From: Sedimentisphaerales bacterium
Lineage (GTDB): Bacteria; Planctomycetota; Phycisphaerae; Sedimentisphaerales; SM23-30
Length of the DNA stretch: 64,000 bases
Reading direction: 5' to 3' (one strand)
Assembly (NCBI GenBank): GCA_963666285.1
Contig: OY762711.1
Under the pieces are notes generated by a model. It was not told the DNA's origin. It did not search any database and saw only the letters and a program-made list of their open reading frames with translations. This document shows positions 929 through 17,900 of the stretch, one piece after another. The translations under genes were made by a program, and so were the position numbers. The first letter of the stretch is position 1, and every line of letters starts with the position of its first letter.

Positions 929-938
929 TTTACTAACC

Positions 939-1121
939 TCAAAAAGGAGAGCCGAATACCTCGGCAATCTCATCTACAAATCTATCAAGCATCATGCTAT
1001 CCTCCCTTAAACTCATCTTTTGATTATGAGTAAACATTGTGCTTTCTTGATTTTCCGAAAGCTTTTTATTTAAGGATATTATTTCCTTTCCATTGGATTT
1101 ATTTTGTATTTTGTGGTACAT
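939..1121 (-). CDS. small hypothetical protein
   Basis: 60-aa ORF with GGAG upstream, between a repeated promoter-like motif and parB. Confidence 0.3.
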   Translation of the reverse strand: MYHKIQNKSNGKEIISLNKKLSENQESTMFTHNQKMSLREDSMMLDRFVDEIAEVFGSPF

Positions 1122-1186
1122 TTTGAATCTCCGAGTTTATGGGTGTTACCGCACCCATTTACTCTACTTCTTAGTAAGTTTAATCT

Positions 1187-1219
1187 CTTTATATACTCTA
1201 TCCGCACACTTGACCAGTG
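1187..1219 (-). promoter_or_regulatory. repeated promoter-like motif, copy 1 (TATATAAAG plus conserved CAAGTGTGCGGAT)
   Basis: 28/33 identical to 3084-3116; both copies precede minus-strand transcription units. Confidence 0.6.
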
Positions 1220-1294
1220 CCGACGACAAAATAAAAAAGTAATGGTGATAAATTCGAGATATTGACTTATTAAAACAAAAATCAATCTCACTTT

Positions 1295-2092
1295 TTAGCT
1301 TACCCACTTGTTCAAATCGTCATTATGATACTTTCCTTTTTGTATGACGATATTATTAGTTGTGGTGCGTTCTATTGTTACCTTGCGAATATCATTATTT
1401 CTATAAGATTTATCGATATATTTGTCAGGGTTACATTGTAATTTATTGACTTGTTCAAGCATAAGAACAACCATATATCTATAGTCAGTCAAAATCATCT
1501 GAATCTTACACATTTTGACACATAATGAATCAATGTCACTCCCGACAAACTCAAAGTAATCAAGACCCGCCAAACCAGCTTCTTCAATAATTACTTTTTT
1601 ACATGCCAAAAGCATCGCACCAGAGCCGACGCACGGCTCCATGATCGAACAATTTTTATTATCCACTTTAGCTTTTACTATTCTTTCTTTTACATTACCA
1701 AGATTCATTTTTGCCATCACTTCACAAATATGAAAGGGTGTAAAAAGCTGTCCTAATGCTTTGGATTTGCTAAGTGAAGCAACTTGCATATAAATTTCAC
1801 CTAGATAATCCCATATACAATAATCATAACAAAATGCTTTTATTAACAGTCCGACAATTTCAGAAGCAATTTGAACTGCTCTTTTATCCATCTTGCTAAC
1901 TGCCTGCATGTATTTTTCTTCTTCTTGTTGAAGTGCATAAAGTGCTAGGTCAATAATCTGCTCAAAAGTATTCGCCCAACCACCAAAAAGAGCATAATTT
2001 TTCTCAATCAATTTTATGATTTGCTGAACAGTATCTTTTGCGTTACCAGTTCCTTTAATTGGCTCATCCCAAGATTCGTTTATATTATCCAT
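1295..2092 (-). CDS. N6-DNA-methylase-like SAM-binding protein (short form typical of mobile elements)
   Basis: GQLFTP (motif X), EPCVGSGAML (motif I), GSDID; no NPPY catalytic motif. Confidence 0.75.
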   Translation of the reverse strand: MDNINESWDEPIKGTGNAKDTVQQIIKLIEKNYALFGGWANTFEQIIDLALYALQQEEEKYMQAVSKMDKRAVQIASEIVGLLIKAFCYDYCIWDYLGEIYMQVASLSKSKALGQLFTPFHICEVMAKMNLGNVKERIVKAKVDNKNCSIMEPCVGSGAMLLACKKVIIEEAGLAGLDYFEFVGSDIDSLCVKMCKIQMILTDYRYMVVLMLEQVNKLQCNPDKYIDKSYRNNDIRKVTIERTTTNNIVIQKGKYHNDDLNKWVS

Positions 2093-2133
2093 TTTTCACT
2101 ATATCTAAACAATGTGGCTTTATACCACAAAAA

Positions 2134-3033
2134 TTAATTTTCATGTTTTACGTTAAGGATAAAGTCTGCGGCTCTCTGTGCCTTACTAGCCGCCATCATT
2201 ACAAGCCTGTTATCGTTTGATATAGCTTTTTTCCAATTCTCAATATATGCCGCCGAATTTTCTATTGTATCGTTTTCTATTCGAGTATGTCCGCAAAGAA
2301 AACAACTTCCCATTTCTGCCACCAATTCCTCTTTTGCATATTCTCGACTTTCAAGTTTAGATTTTTTCATTACTTCAAAATTTCTATTACATCGGTTTGG
2401 GTGTGCTGTGCTGTGTATCAGTTCATGAAACAAAACACTATAATACTTTTCTTTACAAATGAATTTACTTTTTTGTGGCATATGTATTTTATCTGTTGAC
2501 GGTCTATAGTATGCCATGCCCATCCCTTCATGGTCGATTTCAGGGCAGTTTGGCATACTATTTATTACTTCTTCACATGTCTGTATTGGAGAAAATTCCA
2601 GTTTCTCGGTTTTGGCATCTTCTGGTATCTCTATTCCTTCTACTTGATCAGCATTAAATACTCTGTAATATTTAGGAACTGCAAAAGATCGTCCGACTTC
2701 CTCGCCGTTTTCGTCATCACTTTCAAACCATAACCAGAAAACAACTATTTCAGACTTTGCCCCAGCTTTAACATGTCCGCCTAACTCTTTAACCTGCTTG
2801 AATGTTAGCCAATATTGGCTTTTATATCCGTTTACAATTTGCGAAGCGTTAAGTAGCCAAGTGTTAATCCCTCGATACTTACGACGAGTTGTTAAGTTTT
2901 GTGGGAGTTCGTCATCATTCCAAGGTTGTTTCCAGGGAACGCAACCTTTATTTAATAATTCTAAAACTCTGTCTGTAATTATTTGATAAACATCTTTTTT
3001 CGGTTTTCTGGTATTATCTCTTTTCCCTTTCAT
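2134..3033 (-). CDS. ardC: ArdC-like antirestriction protein (ssDNA-binding N-terminus plus zincin-like domain)
   Basis: PWKQPW, YRGIN, WLTFKQ, VFNADQ, AYYRPSTDKIHMP, HELIHST, YAKEELVAE motifs. Confidence 0.9.
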   Translation of the reverse strand: MKGKRDNTRKPKKDVYQIITDRVLELLNKGCVPWKQPWNDDELPQNLTTRRKYRGINTWLLNASQIVNGYKSQYWLTFKQVKELGGHVKAGAKSEIVVFWLWFESDDENGEEVGRSFAVPKYYRVFNADQVEGIEIPEDAKTEKLEFSPIQTCEEVINSMPNCPEIDHEGMGMAYYRPSTDKIHMPQKSKFICKEKYYSVLFHELIHSTAHPNRCNRNFEVMKKSKLESREYAKEELVAEMGSCFLCGHTRIENDTIENSAAYIENWKKAISNDNRLVMMAASKAQRAADFILNVKHEN

Positions 3034-3083
3034 TTTTATCACGTTAAGCCTTACTTGGCTATAACATATAAGAGATAAGTGAC

Positions 3084-3116
3084 CTTTATATACCTCATCC
3101 GCACACTTGTCTAGTG
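3084..3116 (-). promoter_or_regulatory. repeated promoter-like motif, copy 2, upstream of ardC
   Basis: CTTTATATACCTCATCCGCACACTTGTCTAGTG, 28/33 identical to 1187-1219. Confidence 0.6.
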
Positions 3117-3426
3117 ACCGAATACATTAACACGACTTATTAAAACTATATCCGAGAAATTTCGCATATAATCAATATCGTTCATTAAATAATTCCATCA
3201 TATAAACGAATAATGACGTGAAGACCTTTTGGTACATAACATATTTTTTCTTTCCAAGCCCCCCGATTCTTCTGGGGGTTGGAAGAGCAAAAATCTTATT
3301 AGAAATGAAGCGAGTGCAAAGCACTTTCTATAGTCAAAACATGGGTAGCGTTTCAATTACATTATTATTTTAACCTTCCATCTTATCTCATAAATATTTA
3401 TAAACATTTGTTGCAAAAGCAACTTT

Positions 3427-4215
3427 ATGATTTCCACTAGAAAACTAATAAGTCACCTTAAGTCTTTGCCTTCAGTTAAAGGGCTTGCCTATGCAGGAGG
3501 AAAATCAAAAGGATACTTTGACAAACATTCAGACATTGATTTAATTGTCCTAATCGACGGAGGCAATCCTAAAACCTTTTTTGACAAATATGTACATACT
3601 TTGGATATAGATGTTAGCCCGCATCCACATCTGTTTTCAGAATTAAAAGTAATTCCTATCAGAACCAGTTCTGATGACCTCGATTTCAAAATTATTACTG
3701 TTAAAGAATATAGTAATATTGCCAAAACTCCATCAGGCGACTTGTTTATTGCATACACCAAAGATATTAAAATAATATATGATCCAGATGGCATCCTAAA
3801 AACTGCAAAATATAAGAAAGTAGATGAAAAAAGTTCCAAGGAAGCTCTTAAATGGATCATTGCTCTTTTAAGGGCTGAACAAATGATGGAGGTTCTTATT
3901 GAAAGAGACGATCATGTCCATATAAATAATGCATTTTCACAAATAATTGTTCAAACAGTAAAGATTGTATATATTTTGAATAAAAAACCGTTCCTGTCAA
4001 CGAAATGGTCTACAAGGGACATTGCAAAAATGAAAATTAAGCCCAGCAACTTTGATGAAGAATTAAGGATTCTAACTCTTCTCGGAAATTCTCCTGATGA
4101 AGTTAAAACCAAAGTTAAAATCATCCAAAAAGTAAGCAATGAATTATACGCTTTAATTCAGAAAATTGATCCTTCAATTGACAAAGTTAAAGAATATGCT
4201 GGCTGGAGATATTAA
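3427..4215 (+). CDS. Pol-beta superfamily nucleotidyltransferase with C-terminal helical domain
   Basis: AYAGGKSKGYFDKHSDIDL (GG in place of GS, then DxD), later DLDF acidic strand. Confidence 0.7.
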   Translation: MISTRKLISHLKSLPSVKGLAYAGGKSKGYFDKHSDIDLIVLIDGGNPKTFFDKYVHTLDIDVSPHPHLFSELKVIPIRTSSDDLDFKIITVKEYSNIAKTPSGDLFIAYTKDIKIIYDPDGILKTAKYKKVDEKSSKEALKWIIALLRAEQMMEVLIERDDHVHINNAFSQIIVQTVKIVYILNKKPFLSTKWSTRDIAKMKIKPSNFDEELRILTLLGNSPDEVKTKVKIIQKVSNELYALIQKIDPSIDKVKEYAGWRY

Positions 4216-4243
4216 AGTAGGCTGTTAACTGCCTTTATCTTTT

Positions 4244-4570
4244 CTAATCCTTTAGGTATTCAGGATATTCAAATTGTAACTGACTTTTTGCGAAAGGGCA
4301 TAATCCACGAACTAAGCCTTCAATAGATTCAGAATTAAGTCTTTCCATTTCATAATCTAACTCCATATTATTTTGATATTTAAGAGGTATTCCATTATAT
4401 ACATTAGTTTTCAAATTCGCTGATACAGCTCCATCTATATATCCTTGTATATACATCATATGCTCTGGTTCTAAAGGAAATACCCCAATCGCTGCATTAT
4501 GATAGTATAAAAACGTATAAGTATCCTTAACCTGTGCCAGGTATATATCGCTATTGCTCACTGAAGTCAT
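4244..4570 (-). CDS. hypothetical protein
   Basis: ORF of ~108 aa; TTTATAAA box 22 nt before the ATG at 4570. Confidence 0.5.
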   Translation of the reverse strand: MTSVSNSDIYLAQVKDTYTFLYYHNAAIGVFPLEPEHMMYIQGYIDGAVSANLKTNVYNGIPLKYQNNMELDYEMERLNSESIEGLVRGLCPFAKSQLQFEYPEYLKD

Positions 4571-4609
4571 AAACAAAGGTAATTTTCCTACGTTTATAAA
4601 CCTTATACA

Positions 4610-6028
4610 TCATTCAATAGAATACATCTGTACTTTCTGCCAATATGGAAATCTGTGTGAATCATCATATATTAAACCTCGTTCCTGTTCAAGATAGGAC
4701 AAGTACCCACTATCAACCCATGTGTTAGGGAATCTAAAAGGCACTTTTCTTTCCTTGCCGACAGGCTTAAGTTCTACATTAGCATTTTTAGCTGCAGATT
4801 CTGCTTCAGGTATCGCCAAATGTGAAAACTGTAAATATGTCTTTTTACCAATTATCTTACAGCGTTCAATAATATCGACAAGTAAATCAGTTCCGGCAAC
4901 AGTGGTTTTCAGTTTTAACTCTTCAAACTTATCTAATACTGGCAGATACGGTGGATTACAAACTATTAAATCATGTTTATTAAAATTAGTATTCAGCTTA
5001 GATGTAAATATACCAAGTTCAGATTTCAAATTTACATGCTTGTACTTTGATTTATTTAGATGCCAGTTTGTTACTCCATACAGATACGGCAATAATAACC
5101 AATCTGATAGAACAACCTCTTTAATGTTGGGATTTTTACTGGCAAGCATTATCCCTAAAAACCCTGTTCCAGAACCCATATCAAGCACAGAATTATATCT
5201 TTCCTCAAAGACACCTTCTTCTTCAAGAGTGTTTAACATGTAAAATGAGTCAATTGATGGAGGCCATAGCGGGTCTTCGCATTTCCAATAGAATTTAAGC
5301 CCTTCATACTTAAACATTACATGCCCATATACAAAATTATAATGTACATCTTTACCATGAGGGCTACTGTGTATCTGGCATTCATATTTCTTTGATGATG
5401 GTGTTGGAATGCCACAATGACAATCCCACATAACCAATGGCTTTTTTACTGTTATTTGTTTGGTTTTTGAACATGAATATGTGATTCTAGCCAAAGTTTT
5501 TGGAATGGTAACTGTTAATTCCGGTGTTGGAATACTATTTAGAAAAACATCTTCAAGGCTTGCTGTGTAAAAAATATCATTAAAAGCCTTAAACGAGATG
5601 TTTCGCTGCTGTATATGTTTATCTATATAGTCATAGTATTGTTCTTCAATCACTCCTCTTGGAGCAAATTTATGGTCACGGATTAAAGGTAGCAGGTTTT
5701 CGTCTATTTCCTTAAACTGCTTGGCATAATAACTAAAACTGGCTGACACATATTCTTCAGCATTGTCATTAGAGCTTGAAAGTTCGCTAAGTGTAACACC
5801 TAATGCAGCAGTCAATTTCTTTAATGTATTTCCATCGTATCGCTTTTGGACATTACTCAGACTTTCAATCTTTTTAATTGTTTTTTCACTGACACCTGAC
5901 TCATAAGCCAAATCATCGACAGTCCAGTTTTTGCGTTCTCGTAAAGTCTTAATCCTGGCTTTTATATCAGGAGTTATATCAACTCCACGACTACCAGTAT
6001 CTTTCCCTATCTTTCCATTACTTTCCAT
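4610..6028 (-). CDS. XRE-family HTH fused to a HemK/MTS-like class I SAM methyltransferase
   Basis: RIKTLRERKNWTVDDLAYESGVSEKTIKKIE (HTH); LDMGSGTG and VCNPPY; start chosen at ATG 6028. Confidence 0.8.
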   Translation of the reverse strand: MESNGKIGKDTGSRGVDITPDIKARIKTLRERKNWTVDDLAYESGVSEKTIKKIESLSNVQKRYDGNTLKKLTAALGVTLSELSSSNDNAEEYVSASFSYYAKQFKEIDENLLPLIRDHKFAPRGVIEEQYYDYIDKHIQQRNISFKAFNDIFYTASLEDVFLNSIPTPELTVTIPKTLARITYSCSKTKQITVKKPLVMWDCHCGIPTPSSKKYECQIHSSPHGKDVHYNFVYGHVMFKYEGLKFYWKCEDPLWPPSIDSFYMLNTLEEEGVFEERYNSVLDMGSGTGFLGIMLASKNPNIKEVVLSDWLLLPYLYGVTNWHLNKSKYKHVNLKSELGIFTSKLNTNFNKHDLIVCNPPYLPVLDKFEELKLKTTVAGTDLLVDIIERCKIIGKKTYLQFSHLAIPEAESAAKNANVELKPVGKERKVPFRFPNTWVDSGYLSYLEQERGLIYDDSHRFPYWQKVQMYSIE

Positions 6029-6040
6029 TACTTGCCCTAC
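6001..6040. repeat. four imperfect 10-bp tandem repeats overlapping the HTH gene start
   Basis: CTTTCCCTAT CTTTCCATTA CTTTCCATTA CTTGCCCTAC. Confidence 0.75.
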
Positions 6041-6153
6041 ATCTAATTTGAAGAATTTAATATGATCATATCTGTAATAATGATCAAAAAACCATGATTT
6101 ACAAACAAAAATTATAGCAGATTGGATTCTAGTTACCAATAGAAAACTAACCT

Positions 6154-6729
6154 ATGAACATACTGAAAAAACTCTTTAATACGCCCAAAGCACATACGCC
6201 TTTTGTTTTAGTGCCACCAGGAACAGCCAGCAAACAAACATTAAATGTTGCTTATAGTGAGGAAGAGGCAGATTTGCAGGTAATTGCTAATAGCGGCATC
6301 AGCTTCGGTACTACATCTAAGGTAATAATTGATGAAGACCAGAACACTCATAACATAAAACAGGCTAACTCCTATCTGGTCGGCTCTGCTAAAAAAGTAG
6401 TAAGTTCTTTAGATCAAATTGCAGGCGTTTGCGTATTCTGTGAAAAAGAAACTATCAAGAAATTAAAAAATATTTCTGATGATGAAGCAAGGCTCCTGGC
6501 ATTAGTAGATATTGAGTCTGCTATTAGATGTCAAAACTGCAATTGCTTGATTTGTATTTCACACTCCAAACTAGTCGAAATCGATGGCCAAAGACTGCAT
6601 GTCTGCCCAAAATGCCATAATAAATTCAAGCCTAAATTCGGGTGGTTGAAGGTATTATTCGCCTTTCTATTCTCAGGCTTAATTACTCTATTTTCTGAAG
6701 ATTCATCAAGGGGTGGTTCTCATGAATAA
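6154..6729 (+). CDS. Cys-rich putative Zn-finger protein with C-terminal transmembrane helix
   Basis: CVFC...CQNCNCLICISH...CPKC followed by hydrophobic WLKVLFAFLFSGLITLF. Confidence 0.7.
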   Translation: MNILKKLFNTPKAHTPFVLVPPGTASKQTLNVAYSEEEADLQVIANSGISFGTTSKVIIDEDQNTHNIKQANSYLVGSAKKVVSSLDQIAGVCVFCEKETIKKLKNISDDEARLLALVDIESAIRCQNCNCLICISHSKLVEIDGQRLHVCPKCHNKFKPKFGWLKVLFAFLFSGLITLFSEDSSRGGSHE

Positions 6730-8746
6730 TAAAGTCAAGTTTGACAAACTGGAAGCTGAATTAAAAGCATCTGAACTCATATATGAGCCAAGTGTGGCAT
6801 GCCTATTCGGAGTTCTTGAAAACAATTACAATCAAAACAAAAATCAAGCAATCTTTAACTCACTTTATAATCGTTTATCAGCAGTATTAAATGATAATAA
6901 GTATACCGCTAAAAGAGAACCTGATTTCTTTAAGCCATACGCACCTGAAGTATTCTGTAATGATGGTGATATACATGTTAGCACACAACCCGATGGCATC
7001 GAGTACAACATTGATGTGAACGCATTACTTAGATGTTCATTAGTATTAGGTTCACAGGGCAGTGGAAAAAACAGACTGTTAATGACATTACTGATTCAGA
7101 TCAAGACACTATACCCTGCGATCAAAATATGTGTTATCGATTTTAAGAATGGATTTAGAAATTTACATCAAAAAATTAACGCCAAAGCTATCAACTTAGA
7201 AGATCTTAGCTTAACTTTAGACCCGCCTTCTGATATGTCACAAGAGGCTTTTCTATACGAGCTAACCAGTCAAATCGCCGAATCCACAGGCATCATTTAC
7301 GGCGTTGACCTTATAAATACCGCAGCTGAAAGAGCATTAGAAAAAGCAAATGAATTGAAAAATATTACCAAAGCTGATGTCAGCTTATGCCTTAAAGATA
7401 TTTTAGATGAACTCGGTCAAATCCAGACTAAAAGCTATCGTATTGGAGGATATCTGGATGCTGCAAAAACCGCATTATCTTTCTTAATCGGCAAATCAGC
7501 ACTGTTTAGTTGCAGAAAAGGCTTATCGATAAAAGACATTGTCAAGCACAACTGCATAATTAACTGCCGATCTCTAACACATGATACCCAGGCACGCTGG
7601 TTGGTTACGCTACTATTATACTTTTTATTCCAAGAAGCCAAAAATGATGAAGAGAGCAGAACTCTTAAACGTATCATTGTCGTTGACGATGCAAATCGAG
7701 TGCTTCAAAAACAAAAGATGGGAAATACTATAAGTTCTCTCGGTAATATACTTTCTCTGCTTCGTGCTACCGGAACTGCTCTGATTGCGGCCTCGCAACT
7801 GCCAAGCCTTATAAGTCAGGATATTTTAAGCTTGAGTAAATGTATGTTTACTGTCGGTAGTATCAATGGCTCAGAGCATCTTAAAGTAATACAAAACTTT
7901 ATGGGCTTAACATACGACCAAACTAACCAGCTTACACAGTTCAAAAACCGTCAATCGCTTACATATATATCCGGCTCATCTTATAGCAAACCAATACATG
8001 GATTTGTTCCATTCGTTGAAGATTTTCCAATAACACCTCAGCATTACGAGGATTATTCAAACTTAATAACTCCCTGGCAACCATTATCAAAAATGATAAA
8101 AGAAGCTTCAACCCCAACACCTGTAAAAGAAGTTGCCAAAGAGACTCCAAAACCAAATACCACATCAGATCGACTAATCTACGACTGCATAACTTATCCA
8201 TACGAAAAAGTCAGAGAAAGAGTCAAGCGACTCGGCATGTCAGTTCGCATATATGAAACCTCAATGAATGCTGCAATAAATGAAGGTTATCTTGAAAGAT
8301 CTTCCGCTGGTAAAAGTGTCTTTTTAATTGCTACACCAAAGGCGTTTACTAAATACAACATACCTTCTCCATACGCAAGAAGTACATCTATAACTCATGC
8401 TTTTTACACTAATCTTACTGCATATACACTTAAACAAATGTCAAATATTCAAAATGTGAAGACAGAACTTCCCATTGGAGCAAAAGGTCAAACCATTGAT
8501 GTTGTTTGCACTGACTCAGATGGAAAGATGATGGCAATTGAGTTTACCCAGAGCACCTCTAATTTGCTCGCAAACGCATCTAAACTCCAGGATACCGCAT
8601 ATTCCACCATCATGTGGTTATGTAAGGACGCTGCAACTGCAAATTCTGTAAAGGCATATTTTAATAAAAACACTTCATTAAGTGAATCGTTCAAAAGTAA
8701 ATTCAAATTCGTAAACATAGCTAACTTCATGAAAGGAAAGTTTTAA
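6722..8746 (+). CDS. HerA/FtsK/VirB4-superfamily P-loop ATPase with C-terminal wHTH and PD-(D/E)xK-like domain
   Basis: Walker A GSQGSGKN, VIDFK, Walker B IIVVDDA, LRATG...ASQLPS; C-terminal H...E...IDV...AIE; ATG overlaps the upstream stop. Confidence 0.8.
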   Translation: MNNKVKFDKLEAELKASELIYEPSVACLFGVLENNYNQNKNQAIFNSLYNRLSAVLNDNKYTAKREPDFFKPYAPEVFCNDGDIHVSTQPDGIEYNIDVNALLRCSLVLGSQGSGKNRLLMTLLIQIKTLYPAIKICVIDFKNGFRNLHQKINAKAINLEDLSLTLDPPSDMSQEAFLYELTSQIAESTGIIYGVDLINTAAERALEKANELKNITKADVSLCLKDILDELGQIQTKSYRIGGYLDAAKTALSFLIGKSALFSCRKGLSIKDIVKHNCIINCRSLTHDTQARWLVTLLLYFLFQEAKNDEESRTLKRIIVVDDANRVLQKQKMGNTISSLGNILSLLRATGTALIAASQLPSLISQDILSLSKCMFTVGSINGSEHLKVIQNFMGLTYDQTNQLTQFKNRQSLTYISGSSYSKPIHGFVPFVEDFPITPQHYEDYSNLITPWQPLSKMIKEASTPTPVKEVAKETPKPNTTSDRLIYDCITYPYEKVRERVKRLGMSVRIYETSMNAAINEGYLERSSAGKSVFLIATPKAFTKYNIPSPYARSTSITHAFYTNLTAYTLKQMSNIQNVKTELPIGAKGQTIDVVCTDSDGKMMAIEFTQSTSNLLANASKLQDTAYSTIMWLCKDAATANSVKAYFNKNTSLSESFKSKFKFVNIANFMKGKF

Positions 8747-8958
8747 TGAGTATAAAAAAGATATTTTCAATAGTACTGATTATTCTGTTTTTCATTAATT
8801 TTAACAAAATAGTCCTTAATGCACTCGAACCAATCTATGACTGGTTATGTAATAGCCTATCCTATATCAATCGTTGGGACAAGAATTTTCAATCTATTTT
8901 AGCTCTCATAATCGTAACTGTTTTTTTTGTTCTAATTATCAAACTATTTAGTAAATGA
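8746..8958 (+). CDS. small two-TM membrane protein
   Basis: TAATG overlap with the ATPase gene; two hydrophobic segments; ends KLFSK. Confidence 0.7.
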   Translation: MSIKKIFSIVLIILFFINFNKIVLNALEPIYDWLCNSLSYINRWDKNFQSILALIIVTVFFVLIIKLFSK

Positions 8959-8968
8959 AAGGCAAATA

Positions 8969-9184
8969 ATGCAACTTCCAAAGAACGGACTTCCCAAAGT
9001 TATCACTGGCATAATCTGTTTTACAGTAATCCTTGCAGGCAGTAACCACATTGCAACATTTCTGCGAGCAATAGCAAACCCTGGACGTTCCGGGGGCAGA
9101 CCAGAAGATATCCTTATTGGTGGGATGTTGCTATCAATAGGTTTGATAGCGTTAGTCGGTATTTACAAACTATTTTCAAAATAA
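8969..9184 (+). CDS. small two-TM membrane protein (likely paralog of the upstream gene)
   Basis: AAGG RBS; two hydrophobic segments; ends KLFSK. Confidence 0.7.
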   Translation: MQLPKNGLPKVITGIICFTVILAGSNHIATFLRAIANPGRSGGRPEDILIGGMLLSIGLIALVGIYKLFSK

Positions 9185-9197
9185 AGGAAACATACAA

Positions 9198-10286
9198 ATG
9201 GACAATTACACAGCATTTTCTCACATCGGTGGTCGTAATGACCAGCAAGATAATTTTTTAACATTCTCGGACAATTACCGTACATGCATTGCCGTTATGG
9301 ACGGAGCAGGTGGCCATAGTAATGGTGCATTAGCGAGCCAAACAGTAAAAGAGGTAATTGAAGCTAGTCTAAATGAAATGCCGCATGATATTACCCCAAA
9401 TGAAATAGCAAGTAATCTGGTCAGTATTGTTGAGCTGGCAAATGATACGCTTATACAGATGAAAGAAAAAGGCACTACTATGGCAACCACTCTTGCAATG
9501 GCATACATTCAAAATGATTTAACTTTCATAGTTTGGGTTGGTGACAGCAAGGTTTATCTGAGACGAAATAATAAACTATTTTGCCTTACTGTTGACCATA
9601 GCCAGGTAAGTGAATTTGTCATAAAAAGAATGATAAGCAAAGGAGATGTTCAATCCCACCCGCAAAAGAACATTCTAACCAGAGCAATCGGTGCAAGAAA
9701 TGCCGAACCTGATGGCATTTGTTTTGCCATTCAGGAAGATGATGAACTGCTATTAACCAGCGATGGTGTAGATGATGTATTCAGTGAAAGTGATATTGAA
9801 TCAATCTTATCCAAAACTAAAGAATCGGACAAAGCCAAAGCATTAGTTGAAGAAGCAGTTAATGTAGGGCCAAAAGATAATATAACAGTTATACATTATC
9901 AGCATAAGCCTGATTCTACCCAACCGGTTAACAATTGCTATTCTGGGCAAGCTGCAAGATTGGCTGAAGTTGATGTTAAAAGTAGTGATTCAGAACACCA
10001 AATTGATGTATTTGGTAATTTCGGTTTTGAAAGCAGTCATAATCTTGTTGGTAATATAATTACAATTGGTCGTGATGCTCGTAATCAAATATCAATTCCT
10101 GGTGATCCATATATGAACCTCAAGCATATTGGATTGGAAAAGGATGGTGATGGTTATGTCGTAACCGACCTTAACAGCTTTAACGGTTGTTATGTAAAGC
10201 TGACAGAACCAACCAGGCTCATCCCTCCATTTGAACTTATCATTGGTTCTCGTCGTCTATGTATATCTTCAACGCAGGAGAAATAA
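9198..10286 (+). CDS. PP2C/PPM-family Ser/Thr phosphatase with C-terminal FHA domain
   Basis: GGRNDQQD, MDGAGG, VGDSKVY, TVDHS, LTRAIG, TSDGV, DNITVI; FHA IGR...H...SFNG. Confidence 0.92.
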   Translation: MDNYTAFSHIGGRNDQQDNFLTFSDNYRTCIAVMDGAGGHSNGALASQTVKEVIEASLNEMPHDITPNEIASNLVSIVELANDTLIQMKEKGTTMATTLAMAYIQNDLTFIVWVGDSKVYLRRNNKLFCLTVDHSQVSEFVIKRMISKGDVQSHPQKNILTRAIGARNAEPDGICFAIQEDDELLLTSDGVDDVFSESDIESILSKTKESDKAKALVEEAVNVGPKDNITVIHYQHKPDSTQPVNNCYSGQAARLAEVDVKSSDSEHQIDVFGNFGFESSHNLVGNIITIGRDARNQISIPGDPYMNLKHIGLEKDGDGYVVTDLNSFNGCYVKLTEPTRLIPPFELIIGSRRLCISSTQEK

Positions 10287-10288
10287 CA

Positions 10289-11446
10289 ATGAAAAAAGGG
10301 CAAATAATATTTAATAAACATGAAGTGCTTGATTTCATTGGCGAAGGTGGACAAGGAATTACCGCTGTTGGGCTTAACCATGATACAGGTAAAAGAGTCC
10401 TTGTCAAAGCCTTAAAATATGAATCACTAAGCAACCCCATTGCTTTAGAAAGGTTTCAGCGTGAAGGTGCAGTTCGTATCAATAACCCTTACATTGTAAG
10501 CCCCATTGAAGCGGACAGTAATTATATCATTTTCCCGTACATTGATGCCTTAAACATTGTGGATTTGATGCAAACTGGAGAATGGCTACCAAAACCTAAA
10601 GATATACTCACGATACTAATAAAATCTTGTTTAGGACTTCAATGCCTTCATGACCATAATATAATTCATCGTGATATTAAGCCAGGTAACATCTTATATT
10701 CACCTGAGAATGATGTTGTTGTTCTAATTGATCTTGGTATTGCACAGTTCATAGATGATCCAAGAATAACGCAAAGTTGTCATAATATTGCAACACCACT
10801 TTATGCATCTCCTGAACAGTTAACAAACCCTTTAAGTGTTGATCCTCGGTCAGACATATTTTCACTTGGCGTTACTGCTTATGAAATTGCAACGGGCATG
10901 CCAGCGTTTGCTGCATCGACAGTTGATGAGATCGCTAGTAAGGTTTTGTATGAAAACCCTGACCCTATCAAGGTAATCACTCCTCAATTGCCAGAGTTTA
11001 TTGCAGATGCAATTGAAAAAATGATGGCAAAGAATCCTGATGATCGTTTCCAAAGCACAAGCGAAGTAATTGATTTTCTAAGTGATACGGATATATACCA
11101 CTGCCTTGCTTGTGGTAAGAAAAGCGGATTTCGTTCGTGTAGTATCTGTGGCAGAAATTACATAGCAGAAAAGCTATTGATAGTCACACCCGACAATAGA
11201 AGACGAACATATAGCATTCCTATGGGTGATTTCTTTGTAGGCAGAAAACAGTTAGCAAACTATGAATACGTATCAAGTGACCATTGCAGGTTTAGTGTTG
11301 ATAATAGTGGTATTATCAAAATCAGTGATAACCAGTCAACCAATAAAACTTATGTAAACCGAAAGTTTGCAGGTCAACCAATACATATAACTCATAACGA
11401 TATTATTGAAATTTCAAATTTAACAGCATTTATTTTAAGTGCCTAA
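10289..11446 (+). CDS. Hanks-type Ser/Thr kinase with Zn ribbon and FHA domain
   Basis: GEGGQG, VKAL, RFQRE, HRDIKPGN, DLG, YASPEQ, SDIFSLG; CLAC...CSIC; FHA VGR...VSSDH...STNKT; AGGAG RBS. Confidence 0.93.
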   Translation: MKKGQIIFNKHEVLDFIGEGGQGITAVGLNHDTGKRVLVKALKYESLSNPIALERFQREGAVRINNPYIVSPIEADSNYIIFPYIDALNIVDLMQTGEWLPKPKDILTILIKSCLGLQCLHDHNIIHRDIKPGNILYSPENDVVVLIDLGIAQFIDDPRITQSCHNIATPLYASPEQLTNPLSVDPRSDIFSLGVTAYEIATGMPAFAASTVDEIASKVLYENPDPIKVITPQLPEFIADAIEKMMAKNPDDRFQSTSEVIDFLSDTDIYHCLACGKKSGFRSCSICGRNYIAEKLLIVTPDNRRRTYSIPMGDFFVGRKQLANYEYVSSDHCRFSVDNSGIIKISDNQSTNKTYVNRKFAGQPIHITHNDIIEISNLTAFILSA

Positions 11447-11476
11447 ATCATTAACCACTCATATAGGAGATAAATT

Positions 11477-12178
11477 ATGAGTAATAACAAAAATTATGAC
11501 GGTATTAGTACAATTCAAGAGCAAGACCTTCTGTCTCGTCAGAAAAGCCAGGGGCATGTTGATACTTCTATCCTGGACACTATCACTGAAAAGAATGTGT
11601 CAGTGCCAATGATAGGCAGGACAATATACTGCATTGATACTTCCAGCAGCATGAAGTGGAAGTGTGGACAGCATACAAAAATAGATTCTGTAAGTTATGC
11701 TCTGATATCCAGCTTTGGTATAGCTGCAAGATCAATGCCTGGGAATGAAGTGGCTTTGATTACTTTTGATTCATATTCAAAGACAGTATGTGGTTTTGTC
11801 AATATCGAACAAGGTTATCAACAGTTAGTCAAAACTGCAAAAAGTATGACAGCACAAGGTGGCACTAGCATACCAAATGCCCTTCAGACAGCACTTGATT
11901 TATTTGGGAATAATATATCATCTAATGACACCTTAATCTTAATGAGTGATGGTCAAGGTGGTAATGGTGTTCCATTGGCTAATGAACTTAAAGGGCATGG
12001 AGTTACTATTAAAGTAGTCGGTTTTGGTGGTGATAATGCTAACCTTGATGAAGCTATGTTAAAGAAAATGGCATCTGTGCAGGACGGCAAAGTTCTTTAT
12101 GAATTTGCATCTAACCGAAACAGTCTGACAAAGACTTTTGCTGATTATACTAAAGCAGATGTTACTAAAGTATTGTGA
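11477..12178 (+). CDS. von Willebrand factor A domain protein
   Basis: MIDAS IDTSSSM, GGTSI, ILMSDG; AGGAG RBS. Confidence 0.9.
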   Translation: MSNNKNYDGISTIQEQDLLSRQKSQGHVDTSILDTITEKNVSVPMIGRTIYCIDTSSSMKWKCGQHTKIDSVSYALISSFGIAARSMPGNEVALITFDSYSKTVCGFVNIEQGYQQLVKTAKSMTAQGGTSIPNALQTALDLFGNNISSNDTLILMSDGQGGNGVPLANELKGHGVTIKVVGFGGDNANLDEAMLKKMASVQDGKVLYEFASNRNSLTKTFADYTKADVTKVL

Positions 12179-12184
12179 TGGAGA

Positions 12185-12412
12185 ATGGTAATGAATTCTA
12201 TTGATACACTTGATTTTATAATAAAGACTTTTTTCTGGTTGATGAATTTGTTTTTGATAACGGTAATGGTTCTTCATATATATTCATCAGTCTTTGGCGG
12301 AATTAATCTGCTAAATAGATTTAGCATAAAAAAATTCATTCCATCTAATAAATTATTCAATGCTCCAAAAGACTCTAATCAGAAGTCTGGAGAAATATAC
12401 TTTAATGATTAA
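12185..12412 (+). CDS. small single-TM hypothetical protein
   Basis: GGAG RBS right after the vWA stop; one hydrophobic segment. Confidence 0.55.
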   Translation: MVMNSIDTLDFIIKTFFWLMNLFLITVMVLHIYSSVFGGINLLNRFSIKKFIPSNKLFNAPKDSNQKSGEIYFND

Positions 12413-12421
12413 ATCTGATTT

Positions 12422-12460
12422 AGTCGGACACTTTCAATTGCTGGGGGGTGTCCGGCTTTT
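12422..12460 (+). terminator. putative intrinsic terminator closing the operon
   Basis: AGTCGGACAC...GTGTCCGGCT stem followed by a short T run. Confidence 0.5.
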
Positions 12461-12467
12461 AAATAAA

Positions 12468-12725
12468 ATGACTATGGAAAATATACCAAATACATCCGAT
12501 AGTGATTGGCCTAAAAGACCTGTTTCATTCCCAAGTCTTATGACACCAATTGAAGCTGCTATGTATCTAAGATTAGATGAACTTGGATACACTCCAAAAG
12601 CAGCTAAGCGTACTCTAAAATATTGGCGTGATCAGTACATGTTAAAGGCAACAAAGTACGCAAGGCATGTATGGTTTTTGAAGGATGAGTTAGATAATTT
12701 CTTAAAAGAGAGGACAGAAAAATGA
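12468..12725 (+). CDS. HTH DNA-binding protein, excisionase/RDF-like
   Basis: LMTPIEAAMYLRL...TLKYWR...VWFLKDELDNFL pattern; directly upstream of the integrase. Confidence 0.75.
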   Translation: MTMENIPNTSDSDWPKRPVSFPSLMTPIEAAMYLRLDELGYTPKAAKRTLKYWRDQYMLKATKYARHVWFLKDELDNFLKERTEK

Positions 12726-12812
12726 GCAAAGATTTATCTTGCTATTTGTCTATTTTTGATCAAAGATGGACACGTCAGTCGCTACTGGTCAACCCCGGAA
12801 AGGAGTTTCCCA

Positions 12813-14021
12813 ATGGCAACAATTAAAGTAGGCGTATATCGTAAATGGCTTGAGCCAGTACCTAATGACGCTGACGGCAACCCAATGCCTAAAGAATTAT
12901 GGAATAAAAACAGACGCCATAACTGGGCAGTAAGATGGGTAGGCAATAATGGTAAGCGTTACGGTAAAATTTTCAAGACCAAACGTGAGGCAGAAAGATT
13001 TGCCCATTTGACACAGGAAAAAGTCAATAAAGGCAAAGCTGACAGGCCAAAGAATATCACAATTAAAGATTTTCGAATTGAACATGAAAAAATATTGAAA
13101 GGCCAAGTTTCACAATCCTCTTATATAGAGCATCGATATACCTTAAGGCTCTTTGAGAATTTTATAGGAGAAACTAAATTATTAGATAAGATTCATACTT
13201 GTGATGCAGAAGCATTTATTGCTGACAAGTTAGCTAGTAAAAAATTTGCTTATGCAACAATCAATAAGTATCACAGAACTCTTAAGGCAATATTCAATCG
13301 AGCAATTGATAGAGAATATATTGATGAAGGCACTAATCCTTTTGTTAAGATCAAACCACGAAAGGTTACTGCTACCCCTAATCATTATGTTACGGTAAAG
13401 GAATTTTTAGCTCTTCTTGATTCTGCAAAAAATAAATTGTGGTGGAAAACTTTTATTTCTATCGCATATAGTAGCGGTCTTAGAAGAAATGAAATTGTTC
13501 ACCTAACATGGAAACATGTCGATTTTGTTAATCAGCGTATCGAAGTATCAGCTAGAAAAGGCTCAGATAACATAATCCCGTGGGAGCCAAAAGGTAGGAC
13601 CAACCGTATTGTCCCTGTTTCTGAGGACGCTCTAAAATTATTGATTGATATGCAGGTAAATACACCAGAAGGCCATCCTTATATATTTATTTCCCCCAAA
13701 CGCCTGAAACGGGTTTTGGAACGAATTGATGAGGGTAGCTGGCACGACAGAATTGAAGTAATAAATGGTATGAGCCGAGATTTTGAGGTTATTAGGGAAA
13801 ACGCTAGAGTTACCAAGTGTACCCTCCATGATCTTCGCAGAAGTGCCATAACAAATTGGGCTGATAAACTACCTTTTCAAACAGTCCACAAGCTGGCTGG
13901 CCATAAAAGTGTAAAAACTACTATGGATTTTTATCTATCTGTCCGCCAAGAAGATTATCAAAAAGCTAATAATATTTTGAACGAGATGATCGAGGCGGAA
14001 TTCCAAGTGACACCAAATTGA
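12813..14021 (+). CDS. tyrosine recombinase/integrase
   Basis: SGLRRNE, HDLRR, LAGHKS, terminal FY; N-terminal arm-binding-like region; AAGGAG RBS before ATG 12813. Confidence 0.95.
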   Translation: MATIKVGVYRKWLEPVPNDADGNPMPKELWNKNRRHNWAVRWVGNNGKRYGKIFKTKREAERFAHLTQEKVNKGKADRPKNITIKDFRIEHEKILKGQVSQSSYIEHRYTLRLFENFIGETKLLDKIHTCDAEAFIADKLASKKFAYATINKYHRTLKAIFNRAIDREYIDEGTNPFVKIKPRKVTATPNHYVTVKEFLALLDSAKNKLWWKTFISIAYSSGLRRNEIVHLTWKHVDFVNQRIEVSARKGSDNIIPWEPKGRTNRIVPVSEDALKLLIDMQVNTPEGHPYIFISPKRLKRVLERIDEGSWHDRIEVINGMSRDFEVIRENARVTKCTLHDLRRSAITNWADKLPFQTVHKLAGHKSVKTTMDFYLSVRQEDYQKANNILNEMIEAEFQVTPN

Positions 14022-14026
14022 CACCA
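14008..14026. repeat. TGACACCA direct repeat pair, putative integrase arm-type sites
   Basis: Copies at 14008-14015 and 14019-14026, between integrase end and tRNA. Confidence 0.55.
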
Positions 14027-14050
14027 TCGGCCTTTTTTGAGGCTTGGCAG

Positions 14051-14090
14051 AAAAAGAAAAGCCTCGTAAGTCTTTGACTTACAAGGCTTT
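14051..14090 (-). terminator. intrinsic terminator downstream of tRNA-Lys, at the att junction
   Basis: Minus strand AAAGCCTTGTAAGTC-AAA-GACTTACGAGGCTTT followed by TCTTTTT. Confidence 0.7.
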
Positions 14091-14096
14091 ATTAAG

Positions 14097-14169
14097 TACG
14101 CCATTTAGGACTTGAACCTAAAACCCACGGATTAAGAGTCCGTTGCTCTACCAATTGAGCTAATGGCGC
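14097..14169 (-). tRNA. tRNA-Lys (anticodon CTT), CCA not encoded
   Basis: GCGCCAT acceptor stem, AGCTCAATTGGTAGAGC D-arm, ACGGA-CTCTTAA-TCCGT anticodon arm, GGTTCAAGTCC T-arm. Confidence 0.97.
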
Positions 14170-14860: not shown

Positions 14861-14995
14861 TATCAAAATAGCTTGGGAATACCGTGCCCTGCTCAGGCAT
14901 AGCATCCCCGAATTATCGAACCATACCTGCTAAAATTACTATAACACAAACCGCAAAACACATACAAGGGACTGAAGTCGCGAAAGGAATTGTTA

Positions 14996-17900
14996 ATGCT
15001 CGTTAAGAAATTTTTCACTCCCCAATTATTACTTACTGCCTTTTTCACCTTTTTAGCCATCACCAGCTCTTCATATGCCGGCAGAAACCTGGTAACAATA
15101 GAAACCAGTCTTGGAGACATCACTGTCGAACTTTATCAGGATGCCGCTCCAGTTACTGTAGAAAACTTTCTAGGATATGTCGACAGCGGTTTTTATGACG
15201 GCTTGATTTTTCACCGCGTTATTGAAGATTTCATGGCACAAACCGGTGCCTACGACCCAAACTTGTACGATATTGACTTTTCGGTTTATACCGAAGATGA
15301 ACCTTTTGACCTGCAGGACCCAAATACCTACCGGGAACCCGGTGACCCTATCGAACTGGAAACTGATGCCGGCCTAAGCAATTTGCGAGGTACTATCGCC
15401 ATGGCACGCACCAGCGATGTTGATTCTGCTACCAGCCAATTCTTCATTAATTTTGTTGATAACACATATCTTGATCCCGGAAGCAGTTCTGATGGATACG
15501 CAGTTTTTGGTATTGTTGTCGATGGACTGGATATTGTTGATTCGATGAATGGAGTAGAAAACATCGCTGACCCTGACGACGATGTAAACACAACAGAATA
15601 CGATCATATTACCGGATATTTCAATGATATACCTGCCGATCCGATTACTATCACCAGGGTCTACAGGGTACAGGATTTTGAAGATGATTCCAGCTCAGAC
15701 TTTGAAGATGTTGACTTTCTTAATGTCGCAGATGGCGGAATAAGAACTTTTGTTGGTGCTGGTGACAATGAAGGCGATATCTGGAGCTACGAGTTTAATG
15801 AAGAAGAATATCTCGGCATAAACTGCCTCAAATGGCACCATAATGCTCAAGATACCAGTATCCCGGACAAAACATATTATATGGCTCGTGACACTGATGG
15901 TGAAATTTTTATCCTTAAAGAACTTAAAGACGAAGGTTCCGACTCCGAACAAACTCTTTATGAAGCTGACGACCTGCTGGATATCAGGCCCATTAGCTAC
16001 TATGCCGAACTGGATATGTATTTCAGATTAATTGCCGGTAGCTACGACGACTCAAATCTGGATTCTGATGACAATACCATTGTACTTGGTTCAGGCGGCA
16101 GTACAGAAACTGAAAAGATTATTGCATTTGACGCTTCCCTGTCTCCAAACTATACCGACGACGATGTTATTATTGTCAAATATTCACGCGGATTGGAAGG
16201 CAGCGAAACCCTGGTTGAATATTATTATTATCATAAAGATGATGGCCTGATTCTTTACCTGCAGGATGAAAACCAGGACTTGACCGGTGATGCATGGTGG
16301 CTCGATCAGAAAATATTTGATTCTGAAAGTATTGATTTCTCTGAAGTCCCCTTCCTGAAACTTGAAAACGACTTCGCCTTTACCAGGTATTTTGTCGCTA
16401 AAGGTGATAGAGACCAGAACTTCTCAACCAGTATCAGCTATCCAACCGACCAGTTCAACGGTGTTAGTTACATTACCTGGATCCAAAATGGCATAACCGA
16501 AGAAGGTATCAGAAACTTTGAAATTCATCTTGCAAAAGATACCAACGATACTGTATGGGTATTTTATTACGAAAATGATTTCCAGGTTATTTTTGAAGCC
16601 GAAACTCTCATTGAAGCGGTTAAACTGGAAACTTTTGCAAATGAAAATATTCACTTCGCCCTGATAGCCGGAGCGTACAACCCTGATGACATCGACGATT
16701 CTTCCAATACCGTAAGCAGGGTCGAAAATACTATAACTGTAAATGAAAAAATCATTGCTTTTAACGAAACTCTCGATCATATACCACACTATCAGAATGA
16801 ATTAATTAAGGTCAGACGATGGGAAGGTGATGATACTGATGAAGATGACAATAACATCTGGTACTATCACGAAGACGTTGGTCTCGTGCGTAATTACCGT
16901 GACGGCGAAAGCGATTCGGACGGCAATGGCTGGGAAGTCGCTCACTTTGGCGGACTTTTCAAAAGTGATAGCAATGATTTCAGTGATATCAACTTTATCA
17001 AAGCTACCGTCGATGATGTTAAGCACTATTATGGCAGCAAAGATCTGGAAGATCAGAATTATTCCTACGAATTTACCAGTCTGACATTTGGCGGTATTGC
17101 TGCCCTAAAACTTACATGTGCTCTGGATGACAGTAGCAGCAATGAATTTGAGATTCAGCTTGGTAGAGATAACCTTGATACTGTCTGGGTATTCAGATAC
17201 AAAATTGATGGTGATAACGTATTCTACGCTGGCAGTAGCTCTACCTCATATCTTTATGCCGAACCGCTCAGTAACTTCACCGATGATAACATGTACTTCA
17301 AGCTGATCTCCGGCGACTATGACCCTGATCTGCCTTACGACCCAAATGATGCAGCAACCGAAGTTAATAAAATTGCCTACACTCTCGATAGTGAACAAAT
17401 TACCGAGCAGATTATAAGCTTCAACGCTTCACTTCCGGATGTGCCTTACTATAATGATGATCTGATCCTGGTTGAGTACAATAATGCCACAGATCCTAAC
17501 GATAGCATTAGATGGAAATATTATCATCCCGATGATGGACTTGTCAGGGAAGTTTACGGAGAGACCAACTCCCCTTCAGACTTCGAAAATATCTCTACTT
17601 ACCGACTGGCATGGTCCAGTAAGGCAAAACCTTCATTTGTTACTGATAGTGACGATTTCTCTGAAGTCGATTACCTCTATGCTCAGCCTGGCGATATCAA
17701 ACTTATGGTTGGACAGGGCTACTATGAAGGTGAAAGCTATGTCGTTGAATTTAAACGTTCAAAAATACTTGATACTACCTGTCTGGAAGTCGCCAGCGAT
17801 CTGACTCATATTGAAGACATCAATACAAAAGAATCTTACTATTTTGCCAGGGACCCGGACCTTGAATCACTCTGGATTCTTGCTTATTATGTCAATGACG

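Follow-up and report, generated by a model that had tools for sequence, protein, structure and literature searches.

What do a DNA motor, a nuclease, small membrane proteins and a phosphorylation switch do together in one operon beside an integrase? The question is raised by positions 6154-12412 of a 64,000-nucleotide stretch of Sedimentisphaerales bacterium DNA (GenBank contig OY762711.1; Planctomycetota), here called the window. A first-pass annotation described this region as an eight-gene operon that couples a HerA/FtsK-type ATPase-nuclease and membrane proteins to a kinase, a PP2C phosphatase and a von Willebrand factor A (vWA) protein, and suggested either a defense system or a DNA-translocation machine. 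Comparison with relatives at the sequence level indicates that the operon belongs to a family of integrative elements that combine a constant motor/nuclease core with exactly one of five exchangeable protein-control modules. The phospho-switch is one of these five cassettes, which is not visible from the window alone.

A constant core followed by one of five cassettes

Scans of genome and metagenome contigs yielded 9 and 18 loci. More distant HerA-wHTH-nuclease proteins also exist, with 377 representatives at E<=1e-10. The profile of the Zn-finger protein, the first core gene, matches 41 of 401 Sedimentisphaerales genomes, the host of the window included, while the close ATPase profile matches 11 of 401 genomes of the class. 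The kinase profile matches 4 of 401 genomes; its five best places all lie in the operon syntax and include two additional loci of the window type. Phylum-wide, the vWA profile matches 15 of 401 genomes. Weaker matches in long frames were excluded and six distant loci were fetched, five of which carry the core upstream (four of the Hsp70 type and one kinase-vWA set without PP2C), while the sixth contig ends there.

Open reading frames (ORFs) were labeled by BLAST against our own reference set, with identities taken from Pfam. We kept 62 loci having an ATPase ORF of at least 300 aa and a readable cassette, and dropped same-contig duplicates, loci cut before the cassette or ATPase, and L069, which is broken by an insertion sequence; L002, L031 and L036 are near-identical but were kept. 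Gene order is conserved across genomes, and one syntax emerges from the labeled loci: an optional 58-aa transmembrane (TM) protein, the Zn finger, the ATPase/winged helix-turn-helix (wHTH)/nuclease (fused or split), one or more two-TM proteins, the cassette, a YggT-like two-TM protein, an optional TM protein and AEP primase, then an excisionase (xis) and an integrase or serine recombinase. Start-stop overlaps connect core and cassette. Of 46 testable loci, 39 have a recombinase gene (E<1e-8) that follows the cassette at a distance of 0.5-5.2 kb, and 43 have one at E<1e-5. A tRNA gene terminates six of seven wider regions, and for six of the seven no left attachment repeat was found within 40 kb.

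The slot behind the core is occupied by (GrpE)-Hsp70-vWA in 19 of the 62 loci, by a small modifier-E2-(JAB)-E1 set in 16, by a TerY-type vWA-PP2C-kinase(s) set in 12, by vWA-Tubulin_2 in 12, and by the PP2C/FHA/kinase/vWA set of the window in 3, to which two loci were added later. No locus holds two cassette types, and four of the five types include a vWA protein. Neither a restriction-modification (R-M) system, CBASS, a retron nor any other unrelated system occupies the slot in the 62 labeled and seven further core-bearing loci. Both blocks of the window operon, whose failure to co-occur elsewhere the first-pass annotation named as a refutation of its reading, are found together in L076 of the same genome and in L074, L136 and L137.

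The cassette labels do not follow the ATPase tree, a quick LG+G4 reconstruction of 60 domains with long branches flagged (L106 and L039 were excluded as too short). They require 21 changes, compared with a minimum of 4 and a shuffled mean of 33.5, and the starred branches alone demand 3 to 8 changes per cassette type. The window type falls into three separate clades, each also containing other types. A single clade for the three window-type loci is rejected by the approximately unbiased (AU) test (p-AU 2.3e-7), as is the grouping of both window-type copies in this genome (p-AU 1.4e-5). Cassettes have thus been swapped among cores rather than inherited with them. The window ATPase sits on a long terminal branch (0.77).

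The sister cassettes show further features. The modifier is termed ubiquitin-like by its size, position and C-terminal Gly. The modifier-like ORF encodes a 52-66-aa low-complexity peptide ending near Gly in several E2/E1 cassettes (L072:10798-10992, L086, L088, L071, L097 and L066:8262-8420) and a protein of 73-76 aa in L005 and L032; neither type has a Pfam match. The vWA protein of the vWA-tubulin cassettes (L042:5682-7088 and 11 other loci) has an N-terminal signal-like segment and a β-rich C-terminal end that is FHA-like by eye. L134 contains a kinase-Zn ribbon-FHA-like protein and a vWA protein without PP2C behind a split ATPase/nuclease, and in L130 an xis-like/kinase ORF and another vWA come after Hsp70-vWA-primase.

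Layout of the window operon

The eight ORFs all lie on the + strand with junctions of -8, -1, 10, 13, 2, 30 and 6 nt, which agrees with the co-oriented, overlapping or closely spaced genes noted at first pass, and AGGA/GGAG-type sites precede most of them. From this spacing, the eight genes are probably co-transcribed. A terminator-like hairpin (12422..12457, +; -21.2 kcal/mol, z -3.7, followed by TTTT) is positioned at the end of the eight-gene block, and 2 of 200 shuffles are equally stable. Behind it lie the two recombination genes that had also been recognized at first pass. The excisionase-like HTH_17 protein (12468..12725, +) was assigned from position and homologues, its PF12728 match (E 0.035) being under the cut-off; its start was picked from the sequence, the whole ORF covering 12360-12725. 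The tyrosine integrase (12813..14021, +) matches PF00589 with E 1.5e-20.

Structure of the ATPase-wHTH-nuclease fusion

Core gene 2 (6722..8746, +) encodes a 674-aa protein, in which a HerA/VirB4-like ATPase domain (~85-440) is followed by a wHTH domain (~480-550) and a PD-(D/E)xK-type nuclease domain (~555-674). The window ATPase itself has no Pfam match over the cut-off, while PF01935 is found in 8 of 13 homologues. Its model matches DndH-C, HerA and VirB4 in Foldseek (E 3e-10 to 1e-8), with Sir2-HerA and HerA-DUF structures also among the matches. The C-terminal 198 aa are predicted with a pLDDT of 95.6 and form a MarR-like wHTH (Z 9.8, root-mean-square deviation (rmsd) 2.6, 73 aligned) joined to a nuclease-type domain resembling AF1548 (Z 8.1, rmsd 3.0, 103 aligned), for which Foldseek adds Card1, NucS/EndoMS and Bax1. 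The homologues, Foldseek matches and predicted fold together confirm the ATPase-wHTH-nuclease-like fusion proposed earlier. Searched by sequence against the PDB, the nuclease profile found nothing but the eS25 wHTH, at E 0.016 or worse.

In 38 nuclease-domain sequences with a mean identity of 28%, H559, D593 and E607 are invariant and E582 is conserved in at least 90%, suggesting that the nuclease site is live, with ExT instead of ExK. The ATPase contains a Walker A motif (GSQGSGKN), a Walker B motif (DD) and the arginine finger R348, the last being present in 61 of 62 ATPases. Because its Walker A ends in GKN and the Walker B Glu is replaced by Asp, the window ATPase may be weak. The Ser-to-Asn change in Walker A is seen in both source contig sets, and the 67%-identical relative P0002 has GKS. 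An N-terminal hydrophobic segment was found in 17 of the 49 ATPases whose N-terminal part is long enough to test. A complex prediction of ATPase(1-440) with the Zn-finger protein scored 0.00, with controls unfolded and the partner fold uncertain, and weighs neither way.

The Zn-finger and small membrane proteins

Core gene 1 (6154..6729, +; 191 aa) encodes a binuclear, eight-ligand Zn finger (CxxC...CxxC-x4-CxxH...CxxC) with a C-terminal hydrophobic helix that forms one weak TM segment. In the alignment of 18 homologues, C134 and H137 are invariant, and five more Cys and G91 are conserved in at least 90%. Pfam gave no match for the window protein and no family in more than 2 of the 18 members, and an assignment as RING/B-box was dropped for this reason; the Atlas feature Prok-RING_2 (0.81, under 0.9) is a lead only.

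Three small proteins contain TM segments. Core gene 3 (family tm3; 8746..8958, +; 70 aa, 52 sequences aligned) and its neighbor (family tm4; 8969..9184, +; 71 aa, 45% identical to C1:2967437) encode two-TM proteins, and the last gene (12185..12412, +; 75 aa) encodes a one-TM protein that takes the position of the YggT-like two-TM gene of most relatives. A homologue of the last gene closes the second copy of the block in this genome (pairwise E 7e-8). The YggT-like and tm0 genes are absent from the window locus. Of the four membrane proteins counted at first pass, these three stand, whereas the first is mainly a Zn finger. The ends of the adjacent two-TM genes (8935-8968 and 9161-9194) are 71% identical over 34 nt, and both proteins end with KLFSK; the site is the junction of the core with the block common to the second island, and the similarity is possibly a trace of a cassette swap.

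The phosphatase-kinase-vWA cassette of the window

The order PP2C-kinase-vWA and the FHA domain on both enzymes, as first annotated, are found by Pfam over the cut-off. The PP2C phosphatase (9198..10286, +; PF13672, PF00481, PF00498) has intact metal-binding Asp motifs, and its C-terminal FHA has Asn instead of the usual phosphate-binding Ser; it reaches 166.8 bits against NF033484, whose cut-off is 230. The Hanks-type Ser/Thr kinase (10289..11446, +) is soluble, without a TM segment, and its HRDIKPGN, DLG and SPE motifs are intact. A Zn ribbon (CLACG...CSIC) is located between its kinase domain and FHA, and the latter has GR/SxxH/NxT. The stand-alone vWA protein (11477..12178, +) has a complete MIDAS (D54-x-S56-x-S58, T130 and D158) and belongs to the vWA family of the Hsp70 cassettes, not to TerY.

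The resemblance to TerY-P noted at first pass holds for the PP2C and the kinase-Zn ribbon but not for the vWA. The PADLOC TerY model does not match the vWA proteins of the window, L074, L076 and L070, whereas the TerY-type sister cassettes of L003 (E 1.8e-17) and L007 (E 3.5e-16) serve as positive controls, and neither the window vWA nor its PP2C has pairwise BLAST similarity to the TerY-type sister proteins. The window triad thus lies outside the TerY-P family, and the slot has received two vWA/PP2C/kinase sets that are unrelated to each other. L076, on another island of the same genome, contains the block from tm4 to the last gene once more, with 45-50% identity; it is preceded by a distantly related split ATPase/nuclease, and a serine recombinase then follows.

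A proposed gated DNA motor and its alternatives

We propose that the operon may encode the element's own membrane-tied DNA nicking and translocation motor, gated by a plug-in protein-modification switch, a reading that we hold with about as much doubt as confidence. It builds on the observed gene content, folds, conserved catalytic residues, fixed syntax and cassette exchange. Excision by xis and integrase would come first, and an AEP primase gene follows in many relatives. The HerA/VirD4-like ATPase would form a hexamer tied to the membrane through its own N-terminal helix or through the Zn-finger and two-TM proteins. The wHTH would bind a site on the element, where the PD-(D/E)xK domain would nick, and the motor would pump the DNA, much as a fusion of a coupling protein with a MOBC-type relaxase might do. 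The cassette, a reversible protein-modifying device driven by NTP, would gate assembly or activity of the motor; such an action on the core is suggested by the syntax. In the window copy, the kinase would phosphorylate Thr, the FHA domains would read the mark, PP2C would erase it, and the MIDAS vWA would be the adaptor.

The constant core beside xis and integrase favors a machine of the element over a stand-alone defense system. Three Pfam queries found no PF19044, PF12696 or PF03432 (VirB4/TraG-type ATPase, TraG-D_C and MOBP relaxase) in the 97%-complete host, so a separate transfer route would be needed. The constant nuclease and variable regulator support the motor, as conflict systems show the reverse, with variable effectors (PMC7159879). 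The hydrophobic N-terminal segment of 17 ATPases, the MOBC-like build of the wHTH-nuclease part, the recombinase and tRNA genes at the ends of the loci, and the ParB, ArdC and methylase genes nearby also speak for it. By analogy, the pT26-2 and Ced systems are precedents for a HerA-like ATPase with small membrane proteins on integrated elements (PMC6972569, PMC9905601), and the H1-T6SS for phospho-gating of a membrane machine (PMC3224232).

Several observations weigh against the motor. No oriT (origin of transfer) candidate and no outer-membrane or pilus gene was found. No protein of the operon exceeds two hydrophobic segments or TM helices, that is, a multi-pass channel is missing from the operon. 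Of the 38 nuclease-domain sequences, at most 1 is matched by any given Pfam family, and PF13814 (Replic_Relax), a family linked to MOBC relaxases, has no match at the locus. GK[ST] is present in 52 of 54 scored relatives but gives way to GKN in the window, and among the 62 ATPases, Walker B reads DD in 35, with Asp in place of Glu, and DE in 24. The terminator-like hairpin stands between the operon and xis/integrase, and no relatives were found in IMG/VR, plasmids or phages. Moreover, at least six islands have a second module composed of a wHTH protein, in some cases an N4/N6 methylase, a coiled-coil protein and another ~700-aa HerA-wHTH-nuclease with canonical Walker B (C1:3379257-3383209 (-), C1:2955370-2959385 (+), L142, L145, L150 and L152), 8-50 kb from the studied operon, which blurs which module does what.

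The same genes could instead constitute a thresholded system against phages or mobile genetic elements, in which the HerA-nuclease destroys DNA as effector, the two-TM proteins sense or form pores, and the cassette provides the threshold; its place beside the integrase would be that of the islands' defense cargo. We consider this possible but unlikely. HerA paired with a nuclease is well established against phages, as in DUF4297-HerA (PMC11291478), consistent with the Sir2-HerA and HerA-DUF matches of the ATPase model, and three of the five cassette themes are themes of GAP1-N2 conflict systems (PMC7159879). A sister cassette has a true TerY vWA (L003), and anti-phage activity is reported for TerY-P-like modules (PMC11090510). 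R-M genes of types I and II are present on the islands, and PADLOC gives weak matches to mad8 (E 4.9e-8, partial) and HerA (E 1.6e-6). Against defense, the effector is invariant, its place beside xis/integrase is nearly fixed, anti-phage HerA and MAD6 scores are far under their cut-offs (see below), and the distribution is narrow, with the close ATPase clade in 11 of 401 class genomes and none in plasmids or phages.

Cargo hotspots occur next to integrases, and the core could accordingly be the backbone of the element, with the cassettes being self-contained modules for defense or host manipulation without effect on it; we judge this improbable. Such a hotspot would fit cassettes that move in one piece (AU tests, p 2e-7 and 1e-5) and the TerY-P and vWA-tubulin modules known in other contexts (PMC11090510, PMC2875224). 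It fits less well with a slot that holds only five thematically alike cassettes, four with vWA, and no unrelated system, with the operon syntax around all five best kinase-profile places and the core upstream of five of six distant vWA loci, and with the start-stop overlaps between core and cassette. We find it very hard to believe that the window copy is a decaying hybrid of a family functional elsewhere: the Walker A change where P0002 keeps GKS, the missing YggT-like and tm0 genes and the long end branch would agree with decay, but the eight ORFs and the nuclease, kinase, PP2C and MIDAS residues are all intact.

If the core does move DNA as a motor, Planctomycetota possess a transfer route that standard relaxase screens and screens for integrative and conjugative elements (ICEs) have missed, in about one tenth of the Sedimentisphaerales genomes searched. 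A further step, which we regard as doubtful, is that the elements might be self-transmissible without type IV secretion, by a single coupling-protein/relaxase fusion and a few membrane proteins of 60-100 residues, with firing set by a slot repeatedly refilled by ubiquitin-like conjugation, two unrelated phosphorylation sets, an Hsp70 cycle or a tubulin-like GTPase. Were this true, eukaryote-like control systems would be interchangeable on one bacterial machine, each with a defined substrate, in hosts that are peptidoglycan-poor, membrane-complex Planctomycetota. Substrates of Prok-E2/E1/JAB, Tubulin_2-vWA, orphan Hsp70-vWA and vWA-PP2C-kinase sets in bacteria are mostly unknown, and the mutually exclusive, swapped cassettes behind a small core represent a natural swap experiment with four or five candidate target proteins.

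The island and its surroundings

The right attachment repeat (14051..14141) overlaps a tRNA-Lys(CTT) gene at 14096-14169 (-). Direct copies with 92% identity are located at C1:3372160 and C1:3343430, giving islands of 65.9 kb and 28.7 kb. The 3' part of tRNA-Lys recurs with 92% identity at distances of 65.9 kb and 94.6 kb upstream, so that the operon forms the end of a low-GC 66-kb island. Additional degenerate copies of this repeat at C1:2383839-2383927, 3526141-3526216 and 3538922-3539012 suggest remnants of related islands. A second tRNA cluster is present at C1:5226832-5229866, and no left attachment repeat was found for the second island of this genome, at tRNA-Asn.

Closely upstream of the operon, the window island contains ParB, ArdC and N6-methylase genes, and relatives have DUF932 and SprT-like genes; genes of these kinds are tied to transferred elements. 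The immediate neighbors are a divergent HTH-methyltransferase fusion (4610-6139, -), a gene for a 110-aa protein (4244-4576, -) and a nucleotidyltransferase gene (3427-4215, +). In L152 the operon comes after a related HTH/methyltransferase pair, and in L145 after an HTH protein (by eye). A 33-nt direct repeat (85%; 1187-1219 and 3084-3116), located upstream of both ArdC and the genes on the ParB side, could be a shared promoter or operator. A promoter scan stayed at the chance level (32 against 31.1). Just beyond the island, a 1362-aa protein (14990-19078, +) has a cyclophilin-like start followed by acidic repeats (by eye).

Contigs of two sequencing runs from one sample cover 1-14106 of the window with zero differing letters. 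Contig depths of island and flank are 35.7 and 26.6 (X2) and 25.9 and 27.2 (X1), values that do not equal copy numbers; the contigs of X3 are patchy. The related contigs C2, C3 and C4 (65.6-66.6 kb) are close in size to the 65.9-kb island, which may be chance; they were rejected as excised island circles, being alike among themselves and unlike the island. A low-GC block (28-34%) in the same 66-kb island (C1:~3384000-3407000, L138-L139) encodes a 2759-aa FG-GAP surface protein, PPDK_N, HAD, radical SAM and Nudix proteins and a glycyl-tRNA synthetase, for which the closest Atlas clusters in a feature search are 92-98% archaeal. The block is possibly archaeal DNA captured by the island. Genes resembling it are also found in the second island (C1:2947855-2954104).

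Comparison with known systems

The closest parallel to the motor is the pair of a type IV coupling protein (T4CP) and a MOBC relaxase, where the relaxase TraX comprises a wHTH and a PD-(D/E)xK domain and T4CPs are FtsK/HerA ATPases (PMC12857230). The MOBC architecture, an N-terminal wHTH and a PD-(D/E)xK domain with a conserved acidic active site, is present in the C-terminal part of the window protein. Both share an FtsK/HerA-superfamily ATPase, a wHTH followed by a restriction-enzyme-fold nuclease, and a place beside xis/integrase at a tRNA gene. The window operon differs in having one fused chain (split in some relatives) and a regulatory cassette, with no VirB4/VirB6/pilus set and no match to the relaxase profiles searched. 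Canonical ICE genes are absent from the 30 island proteins and 15 window proteins scanned, and an ICE with a type IV secretion system was rejected, as no VirB4, VirD4-type T4CP or HUH relaxase was found. The pT26-2 core module and Ced/Ted share a HerA/VirB4-like ATPase with small membrane proteins, and DNA movement is proposed or shown for them, but they are archaeal, with multi-pass channel proteins, no fused nuclease and no switch cassette (PMC6972569, PMC9905601). Ced/Ted membership was rejected, the operon having no six- to seven-TM CedA/VirB6-like channel and reaching 12.9 bits against NF041017 CedB (cut-off 700).

In H1-T6SS, PpkA/PppA/Fha1 likewise use kinase, PP2C, FHA and vWA domains for gating a membrane machine, but PpkA is a TM protein with an external vWA (PMC3224232), whereas all window proteins of the cassette are soluble and the vWA stands alone; no T6SS family is found over the cut-off in the operon. 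DUF4297-HerA, Sir2-HerA and MADS combine a HerA motor with a DNA nuclease or other effector, in separate genes and without membrane proteins or a Zn finger (PMC11291478). Anti-phage HerA was rejected (NF042943, 14.4 bits against a cut-off of 800; no DUF4297/Sir2 partner in the scanned window proteins), as was MADS (MAD6, 91.7 bits against 460; no mad3, 4, 5 or 7 match in the 15 proteins). TerY-P shares vWA, PP2C and a Ser/Thr kinase with Zn ribbon (PMC11090510); the window differs by its non-TerY vWA, its PknB/Stp1-like enzymes with FHA, and the extra FHA behind the Zn ribbon of the kinase, and a real TerY-type triad occupies the same slot in 12 sister loci, not in the window. The vWA-tubulin operons are also known (PMC2875224).

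The literature searched gave no description of the core or its element family, of the link between core and integrative elements, of a ubiquitin-like cassette in such a slot or of the double, independent recruitment of phospho-triads, although supplementary neighborhood tables could list such loci. The nearest grammar is that of GAP1-N2, which has a constant NTPase core near the membrane and non-overlapping linked themes: tubulin with vWA; Hsp70 with GrpE and DnaJ; and kinase-Zn ribbon with PP2C and stand-alone vWA, known from firmicutes and actinobacteria (PMC7159879). At its center stands a TRAFAC GTPase together with GAP1 and FNIII repeats (PMC7159879), in contrast to the HerA-wHTH-nuclease, Zn finger, two-TM proteins and integrative element described here; the present family also has a ubiquitin-like cassette and two non-orthologous kinase cassettes. 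General profile scans of the operon proteins gave no GTPase or FNIII family; the profile of GAP1 itself was not used. The operon matches no described system and falls into none of the tested families, while each of its domains is already known, as is the analogous grammar around a GTPase core.

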